A stretch of 64,000 nt of DNA from Escherichia coli (GCF_050920415.1 NZ_CP169309.1); one strand, 5' to 3'. Shown: positions 35,651 through 36,746, counted from the stretch's first letter. A program made the numbers and translations. Notes: a model not told the origin generated them from the sequence alone.

Positions 35651-35778
35651 GGATATTTATCAGGATTTATCGGTTCCGAATCCCTGGATATGTTAAGTCT
35701 TCAGCCTGCCAGTGGTGGGCACTGGTGTTTTACCTGATGGCTGAAATATATCTGACAATTCCCGTCGAGGATTTAGCA

Positions 35779-36093
35779 ATGTATAACGATGAACATAAAT
35801 ATACCGCCTGCATGCAGGCCATGAATGAACAATTTAAATCAGCATTCCTTAAACTCATTCAGCAAAACCACAAAGCAGTAAAATCCATTCAGGCTGAGCC
35901 GTATGGACACCTCACACCACCAACTCTCGACATTATGTCCAGAATATTAACACCAGCCATGCTTCTACGTCTGAAAGACAATATAAATGACTGGTTAAAC
36001 GAAGAATTAAACTACCTTGAATGTGAGTGGGATCATCATTACGCCAAATCACAAAAAGAACGCATCTTCCGTCGATTATCCGGCAACAGATAA
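35779..36093 (+). CDS. Hypothetical protein (~104 aa) on the opposite strand inside the lysis cassette
   Basis: ORF 35725..36093; internal start MYNDEHKYTACMQ preceded by GAGGA at spacing 7; no recognisable family. Confidence 0.4.
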   Translation: MYNDEHKYTACMQAMNEQFKSAFLKLIQQNHKAVKSIQAEPYGHLTPPTLDIMSRILTPAMLLRLKDNINDWLNEELNYLECEWDHHYAKSQKERIFRRLSGNR

Positions 36094-36102
36094 CGAGCCA
36101 GC

Positions 36103-36743
36103 TTATATACGTCCTTTAAGATAAGTCAGTCCTGGATGAAACCAGTAAGCAGGCACTTTTTTAAAGGGTGGATTATCAAAATCACGAAGAAGAGCCTCCC
36201 GCACAACTGCATCCTTGTCCGCACCACTGGCCAGCGCTTCAATCTCAGCAGCTACCTGCAGATATCCCATGCAACGACCAATGCGCTTCATTAGTCCCTG
36301 CTTTTTATTGTTCTTCAGGTAATCAATGGCAAATTCAATGAGCGCCTCACTGTGCTGGTGCGATGCTGGTGTTACTTTTCCATCTTCACGGATCGTGATA
36401 TTCCAGTCATCGCTTGTCACAATAAAAGATGGCCGATTCCCCCCCCATGCCTGGTCTTTATCCGGTGCAGACGCAATAAAATAACGTTTATTGCCTTCCT
36501 CTCCGGCACTTTTAACTGTAATGGAGTACTTTTCTGACAATGCGGTCGGTAAAAACTTTTCCTGCAAAATCTTCTCAAAGGTCCTGCGAGCAATTTTGAT
36601 GCAATCATCGTAAAACGCTGCTTCCTGCTCATCGCGGCGTTTTTTTCATCTTCAGAAACCATCAGCACCGACAGTTTTTTATTCAGTTCAGTGATTTCAT
36701 TTTCCAGGCAACTTATGCGCTGATTCATTTCTTCATGGTTCAT
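36103..36743 (-). pseudogene. Hypothetical ~212 aa gene split into two overlapping ORFs by a frameshift at an A7 tract (about 36637-36645)
   Basis: ORFs 36417..36743 and 36103..36567 join into one coiled-coil-containing protein if the A-run is 8 rather than 7; start is 3 nt after the holin stop with GGGAGAG as RBS. Confidence 0.5.
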
Positions 36744-36746
36744 CGT

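Follow-up and report, generated by a model that had tools for sequence, protein, structure and literature searches.

A known YdfR-family accessory insert separates the holin and endolysin genes of an Escherichia coli lambdoid prophage

Introduction

In phage 21, the holin gene S and the endolysin gene R are adjacent, and the lysis genes are laid out as S21-R21-Rz/Rz1. On the E. coli K-12 map, ydfR lies between essQ and rrrQ, the slot that holds the two genes described here. Late-operon cargo genes, or morons, such as bor, lom, stx, NanS-p and ArtAB, are extra, lytically dispensable and variable inserts among the conserved late genes. YdfR of the K-12 Qin prophage consists of the DUF1327 domain (PF07041) alone and is 103 aa long; long members of its family carry a further module directly behind DUF1327. 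YdfR binds RNase E residues 1–597, the catalytic N-terminal half, and pulls down RNA (PMC13232886). Functional data are available only for K-12 YdfR, and our literature search returned no paper on the function of the genes that intervene between S and R.

Here we analysed a 64,000-nt stretch of an E. coli genome (NZ_CP169309.1; hereafter the window) that contains a lambdoid prophage of ~47 kb, inserted between prfC and yjjG and carrying its late genes on the minus strand. Its holin, endolysin and spanins are of the phage 21 type. Unlike in phage 21, the S–R gap is 1.1 kb long and holds two genes, which we call X and Y, and the R–Rz gap holds two small ORFs.

An accessory insert in the S–R slot

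The cassette reads, in minus-strand order, S21-type holin, X, Y (on the plus strand), SAR endolysin, two small ORFs and Rz/Rz1. We derived its anatomy from the sequence, the ORF list and the PGAP annotation of NZ_CP169399.1, which is 100% identical over window positions 35000–37100. The features are as follows.

36747..36962, minus strand: holin S, class II (S21-type), 71 aa (ORF list, PGAP, PHROG, hydropathy)
36103..36743, minus strand: gene X, here a frameshifted, probable pseudogene, intact length 213 aa (PGAP 'frameshifted', A7 versus A8 alignment)
36417..36743, minus strand: 5' ORF of X after the frameshift, 108 aa, with 34 native residues followed by 74 out-of-frame ones (ORF list versus intact translation)
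36640..36646, minus strand: A7 run in X, T7 on the plus strand (alignment to A8 relatives)
36103..36567, minus strand: 3' ORF of X after the frameshift, 154 aa, TTG start (ORF list)
35779..36093, plus strand: gene Y, 104 aa (ORF list, homologue starts, AF2, phrog_1853)
35651..35778, no strand assigned: R–Y divergent spacer (alignment across cassettes)
35117..35650, minus strand: SAR-type endolysin R, 177 aa (Pfam, PHROG, hydropathy)
34171..34638, minus strand: Rz i-spanin, 155 aa, intact in the window (phrog_13, E 1e-74)

The holin, named 'class II holin family protein' by PGAP (WP_000284518.1, in NZ_CP169399.1), matched phrog_9876 and phrog_20 (holin; E 5e-40), began with the dual start motif MYQM (M1/M4) and had a transmembrane segment with a maximal 19-residue hydropathy (KD19) of 1.83. 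The endolysin matched Pfam Phage_lysozyme (3e-24) and phrog_7, and its N-terminus carried a Gly/Ala-rich, hydrophobic, SAR-like stretch (KD19 1.74 at residue 8). Three-frame translation revealed the Rz1 lipoprotein, with its lipobox, embedded within Rz in the +1 frame. The lysis genes S, R and Rz were all intact in the window. The R–Rz junction is also interrupted, because two minus-strand ORFs of 43 aa and 60 aa (34635–34766 and 34779–34961) sit there; these belong to phrog_4906 and phrog_1115, both families of unknown function.

The coordinates bear out the observation of an earlier note on this DNA that two extra genes, spread over 1.1 kb, lie between holin and endolysin. Its premise that S and R are adjacent stands for phage 21 and lambda and does not extend to a large group of E. 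coli prophages. Comparison with related intervals also removed the suggestion that an occupied S–R interval is unusual, with phage 86, 12E129 and 84 bacterial genomes looking alike in this respect. The S-X-Y-R layout was identical in Stx2 phage 86 (orf5/orf6; NC_008464, where gp05 is a 'YdfR family protein' and gp06 is hypothetical) and in Stx2a phage 12E129 (genes 0780/0790): S is followed after 3–4 nt by a same-strand X-type gene, then by a convergent 104-aa Y and by R. Compared with these phages, Y of the window was 66–68% identical and the C-terminal domain of X 77–80% identical. The 268-aa gp05 of phage 86 has an N-terminal DUF1327 and lacks the coiled coil of X, whereas X of the window has no DUF1327 and is frameshifted. 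At least 80% of the 2.1-kb version studied here was found in 84 of 5,426 complete E. coli genomes.

YdfR-family (DUF1327) genes appeared in 101 phage records, H-19B and BP-4795 included, and occupied the S–R slot in every cassette inspected. The content of the slot varied: Stx2_95 has a lone 329-aa DUF1327-X fusion, an Escherichia sp. a lone 185-aa X, PhiR12 a DUF1327 gene plus a different opposite-strand gene, and Stx2_499 yet another opposite-strand ORF. The insert is thus a known, widely deposited YdfR-family accessory insert in the S–R slot and is largely ordinary.

Gene X is the C-terminal part of long YdfR-family proteins

The earlier note had described a gene of ~212 aa that starts 3 nt after the holin stop, takes its ribosome-binding site from the holin 3' end and is translationally coupled to the holin. 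This description held, with the length corrected to 213 aa. The TAG of the holin and the ATG of X (36743) are separated by three bases (ACG), and the Shine–Dalgarno sequence GGAGAG (36751–36756) lies within the 3' end of the holin gene. With one A added, X again encodes a 213-aa protein, which shares 99% identity with WP_001015166.1 from strain 06-00048, a strain with the A8 form.

Repaired X belongs to phrog_1085, a family of unknown function (E 2e-100, profile positions 117–296), and corresponds to the coiled coil plus C-terminal module of long YdfR-family proteins, minus DUF1327. Consistent with this, it aligned over 99% of its length, at 59–65% identity, with proteins of 287–333 aa that bear PF07041. 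X itself has no room for a DUF1327 domain, because it begins 3 nt after the holin, and searches with the repaired protein gave no Pfam, NCBIfam or PADLOC match, with no PF07041 in the Pfam scan. Its homologues fell into 189 clusters, and every cluster with a source name came from E. coli; standalone forms were 185–221 aa long, and forms of 287–333 aa had DUF1327 preceding the X region. When 1.84 billion representative proteins were searched exhaustively, only 34 X relatives were recovered, and a pattern scan of GTDB species representatives yielded one locus, in an Escherichia sp. The distant relatives share the ~110-aa C-terminal domain alone; its motifs, GRCMGxLQVAAEIE and DNPPFK, are both present in X.

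X begins with a helical hairpin, which a disordered linker joins to the conserved ~110-aa C-terminal domain; its AF2 model had a pLDDT of 75 overall and of about 90 in the C-terminal domain. No membrane segment was found (maximal 19-residue hydropathy 0.76, against 1.83 in S and 1.74 in R), nor did we find a PDB relative. Against diverged copies, dN/dS was 0.30–0.38, indicating purifying selection. X is a real gene, and its product is a soluble protein. Other truncated or frameshifted alleles exist in the X family.

X contains a second long homopolymer, a G8 run at 36439–36446 (C8 on the plus strand), where the window reads GCA TGG GGG GGG AAT and relatives read GAA TGG GGG GAT. This run arose by two substitutions. 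The shifted frame entered at the A7 site stays open until just beyond it.

Gene Y is a real gene with a conserved upstream block

The opposite-strand ORF of ~104 aa at 35779–36093 that the earlier note had credited with a good ribosome-binding site was likewise upheld: GAGGA lies at 35767–35771, 7 nt ahead of the ATG. PGAP takes an upstream ATG (35737, giving 118 aa), and homologues of 101–105 aa begin at the ATG chosen in that note. Y is convergent with X, with 9 nt between their stop codons. It belongs to phrog_1853, also a family of unknown function, and its homologues, typically 104–105 aa long, form about 30 clusters from E. coli and Salmonella. AF2 returned a confident five-helix bundle (pLDDT 87, pTM 0.79), whose structural matches were only uncharacterised enterobacterial proteins in AFDB50, with nothing meaningful in the PDB. 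Y had dN/dS values of 0.15–0.48 against diverged copies, indicating purifying selection, and no membrane segment (maximal 19-residue hydropathy 0.94, compared with 1.83 in S and 1.74 in R). Y is a real gene for a soluble protein. Pfam and NCBIfam gave no match, PADLOC gave only a chance-level Cas6b (E 0.016), and a pattern scan of GTDB species representatives found zero loci. Kinship of Y with the opposite-strand protein of PhiR12 ('DUF1823') was considered and rejected, with an hhalign probability of 0.8%.

Between the divergent genes R and Y, the R-proximal ~75 nt of the spacer (35651 to about 35727) had 94% mean identity in the alignment. In a comparison of PhiR12_1, Stx2_499 and Stx2_95, this block was kept in cassettes with different opposite-strand genes and was missing where there is no opposite-strand gene, which suggests a candidate shared promoter/operator or 5' untranslated region for Y. 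Upstream of Y it contains a perfect inverted repeat, CCAGTG-GTGGG-CACTGG (35709–35725), which is kept in PhiR12_1 and Stx2_499 and may serve as an operator or form a 5' stem-loop. The hairpin at 35707–35727 was also considered as a plus-strand terminator and rejected: its T tract is not kept in PhiR12 or Stx2_499, and wobble pairs favour neither strand consistently.

Like many morons, Y is opposite in orientation and has its own ribosome-binding site. That site is a good one, and the conserved block with the inverted repeat lies upstream of it. Unlike morons, X is coupled translationally to the holin rather than autonomous. No promoter/terminator pair was found for Y: a scan of 35651–35778 for a sigma-70 consensus found no promoter, and the search for a terminator of Y likewise found none. 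Promoter scans of remote loci gave nothing informative. Because the consensus scan returned no promoter, expression of Y apart from late transcription is something we infer rather than read from the DNA.

X and Y stay paired beside the holin

An X-type gene together with a convergent Y homologue occurred at 11 distinct loci (the window, L002/L009, L003, L006, L013, L014, L016, L017/18, L020/21 and L022/23), and Y was never seen without X. Distant X-type genes from metagenomic contigs and Salmonella prophages were 28–46% identical, and each was followed by a convergent gene of 105–111 aa; the distant Y homologues, at L013, L014, L016, L017/18, L020/21 and L022/23, were 23–50% identical. Wherever seen, from Escherichia to Salmonella, the pair and the holin are no more than a few hundred bases apart. 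In Salmonella the pair is found outside the S–R interval, immediately ahead of the holin gene and preceded by HicAB or by an ArtAB-like toxin operon. The new observation of this study is that X-type genes and convergent Y genes stay paired, beside the holin and down to about 25–45% identity, in both Escherichia and Salmonella prophages. At four loci (L010, L019, L011 and L012) X stands without Y, so Y cannot be an obligatory partner.

In a contig of Salmonella enterica subsp. salamae (L022, 6453–7597), pertussis-like ArtA/ArtB toxin genes immediately precede the X-like/Y pair and the holin, a late-operon cargo position equal to that of stx in E. coli. Of the remote metagenomic contigs compared with the phages collection, L015 closely resembled nothing, and L012 aligned only in its lysozyme and Rz genes (about 68% identity).

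A probable single-base deletion in an A-run splits X

The earlier note had placed a frameshift in a poly-A run at 36637–36645. A single-base frameshift in such a run does split X, and its position is corrected to 36640–36646. The sequence across the site is GAUGAAAAAAACGCC. The A7 allele reads GAU GAA AAA AAC, and the A8 allele reads GAA AAA AAA CGC, coding for E K K R. The alignment with relatives indicates that A8 is the ancestral state and that a change of –1 nt splits X. We surveyed the run with 90- and 91-nt probes against the 5,426 complete E. coli genomes, 41 of which carry the segment. The best copy had exactly A8 in 28 of these and exactly A7 in 2. Among near-identical copies no A6 or A9 allele was seen, only A8 and, in two genomes and the window, A7. 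The second A7 genome is OkiPb01695, which carries the run in an Stx2g prophage and has the 06-00048 haplotype on both flanks, the nearest flanking SNPs being 64 and 137 nt away. Because A7 sits on two flanking haplotypes, the A8-to-A7 change arose at least twice. In diverged copies the tract is present in some, absent in 12E129 and an in-frame A7 in PhiR12.

We favour the reading that A7 is a real change, a sporadic slippage pseudogene in X, and consider it probable. Another explanation is a programmed switch, either a contingency tract or a –1 ribosomal frameshift or transcriptional slippage on A AAA AAC that makes full-length X. The A7 allele does contain this slippery heptamer in the zero frame, where slippage by –1 would return reading to the X frame, as at the –1 frameshift sites of dnaX and IS911 (A AAA AAG), and the allele originated at least twice. 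However, the in-phase heptamer is a by-product of the deletion. Unlike at the dnaX and IS911 sites, relatives encode X in one frame, with A8, so that the two-frame arrangement is not conserved, and the 80 nt downstream of A7 folded no better than shuffled sequences (z = 0.07), which leaves no stimulatory structure. Nor does the tract behave as a phase-variable contingency locus: the 28 A8 genomes face 2 with A7, with no series of tract alleles, eight bases are short for such a tract, and the run merely encodes E K K (GAA AAA AAA), with no conservation beyond what the protein needs, given its loss in 12E129 and the in-frame A7 of PhiR12. We therefore regard a programmed switch as highly improbable.

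An assembly or base-calling error, with the phage truly carrying A8 and an intact 213-aa X and all else as in the favoured reading, is a more serious alternative, which we consider possible without expecting it. An undercalled 8-base homopolymer is a classic fault of long reads. Between 24 and 64 kb, the window differs from MFDS1022581 (NZ_CP169399.1) by 4 SNPs yet also by three 1-nt indels, two of which disrupt the MFDS1022581 genes for portal and Rz, the third being a C lost from a GATC site in the window. With 1-nt indels about as many as SNPs over 40 kb, the differences follow the pattern of long-read error, so the A7 call could be technical. OkiPb01695, moreover, the only other A7 genome, has sibling assemblies in its series that are all A8. 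On the other hand, A7 recurs in a genome that is not identical to the window but has identical flanks, and two T8 runs in the window lie in intact ORFs. Among the long homopolymers a +1 correction would repair X alone: outside X none in the window gave a frameshift-like gain of ORF, and at a C7 run (45536–45542) correction gained ORF length only by fusing two adjacent genes. Real decay is also to be expected, because late genes are unselected in lysogens, and the family has other broken alleles. Of the meanings offered for the A-tract in the earlier note, the phase-variable or slippage switch thus found no support, and the real pseudogene is probable, with the assembly error the less likely of the two.

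Proposed role of the insert

The 1.1-kb insert is, in our judgement, likely to be a non-essential accessory module in a variable late-operon slot, outside the lysis machinery. The module sits elsewhere in Salmonella, some cassettes have X alone (L010 and L019), lysis genes function in its absence, and the layout is present in the inducible Stx2 phages 86 and 12E129. X would be made late only, from the Q-antiterminated pR' transcript, through its coupling to S. A promoter of its own, located in the conserved R–Y spacer, may drive Y while late transcription is off, and late transcription, running antisense through Y, would then silence it. Y could partner or modulate either X or the target of X, with the two proteins sharing a cytoplasmic target. 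Very tentatively, that target may be host RNA metabolism late in infection rather than the cell envelope. Host RNA metabolism is proposed because the X module is found fused behind DUF1327 and YdfR binds RNase E; the RNase E data do not transfer directly to X, because X lacks DUF1327. The A8-to-A7 change would be a genuine sporadic slippage in a gene that is unselected while the phage is a prophage, and lysis by S, R and Rz/Rz1 would be unaffected by the break in X.

A bolder version of this scheme is that the X C-terminal domain and Y form an undescribed two-protein module acting as a lysogeny-to-lysis switch, in which Y checks X or its target until it is silenced. We hold this to be conceivable but doubtful; if true, X would then reprogram host RNA decay toward late phage transcripts or toxin output.

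Proximity to the holin invites a role in lysis itself, with X and/or Y as regulators, for example a cytoplasmic antiholin-like or timing factor that targets either the pinholin or the SAR endolysin. In the prophages of both Escherichia and Salmonella the module is never more than a few hundred bases away from the holin, and X is translationally coupled to S. As the earlier note had remarked, however, neither protein resembles a lysis protein, and our searches agreed: X and Y have no transmembrane, signal or SAR feature, no lipobox and no muralytic domain, and neither is similar to a lysis family in PHROG or Pfam. Phage 21-type cassettes exist without the module, certain cassettes have X alone, and at least three assemblies, namely the window and 2 of the 5,426 genomes, have a broken X, with S, R and Rz intact in the window. 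The region just past pR' is, moreover, a general cargo hot spot for stx, ArtAB and NanS-p. We consider lysis regulation unlikely. We judge similarly improbable that X and Y form a toxin–antitoxin-like or anti-phage defence pair, in which Y neutralises X and X is freed on infection or induction. A conserved convergent two-gene module of small proteins that evolve fast (dN/dS reaching about 0.5), located among prophage cargo and adjoined by HicAB at some loci, would suit such a pair. Yet PADLOC had nothing for X and only the chance-level Cas6b for Y, Pfam and NCBIfam had nothing for either, and no catalytic motif or recognised toxin fold was found. X also lies in the late operon, coupled to the holin, and so should be silent in lysogens, and it stands without Y at four loci. 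The evidence continues to favour the accessory module.

For the window itself the insert has little consequence: the lysis genes are intact, the arrangement is a common, deposited one and a single gene has probably decayed. More broadly, in the pinholin/SAR-endolysin cassettes of Stx and other lambdoid prophages, the S–R or pre-S slot repeatedly holds YdfR-family genes, and this slot adjoins stx, ArtAB and other cargo. The pairing of the X domain with Y defines a two-gene unit, possibly linked to the recent finding on YdfR and RNase E. Should X and Y alter how stable late transcripts are or when lysis occurs, toxin release by Stx phages could be influenced as well.

Other features of the prophage

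At window position 33522 the sequence reads GAT-GGG, lacking the C of a GATC site, and both close relatives read GATCGGG. Nanopore base-calling typically drops single bases at Dam sites, which bears on the trust to be placed in 1-nt indels of this assembly. In NZ_CP169399.1, the closest public genome, one-base losses in short homopolymers (G4 to G3 and T6 to T5) frameshift the portal and Rz genes (L007 28042–29642 and L001 2173–2639). Both genes are intact in the window; the NZ_CP169399.1 assembly looks error-prone, or its prophage is decaying. A phage N-6-adenine methyltransferase gene (window ~44392–45044, minus strand) is annotated by PGAP as frameshifted in the near-identical genome, and the window has no indel difference from that genome in this region, so the defect is probably common to both.

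On the holin side, a tRNA cluster (Ile, 'OTHER', Arg) lies at about 38290–38545, and the slot between it and the holin (37524–38116, minus strand) holds a TerB-family gene and a DUF3927 gene. The equivalent slot in the otherwise 99%-identical Stx2g prophages of 06-00048 and OkiPb01695 holds stxA2g/stxB2g. Because the contents of this slot differ, the window prophage is an stx-negative sibling of the Stx2g phages that carries other cargo.
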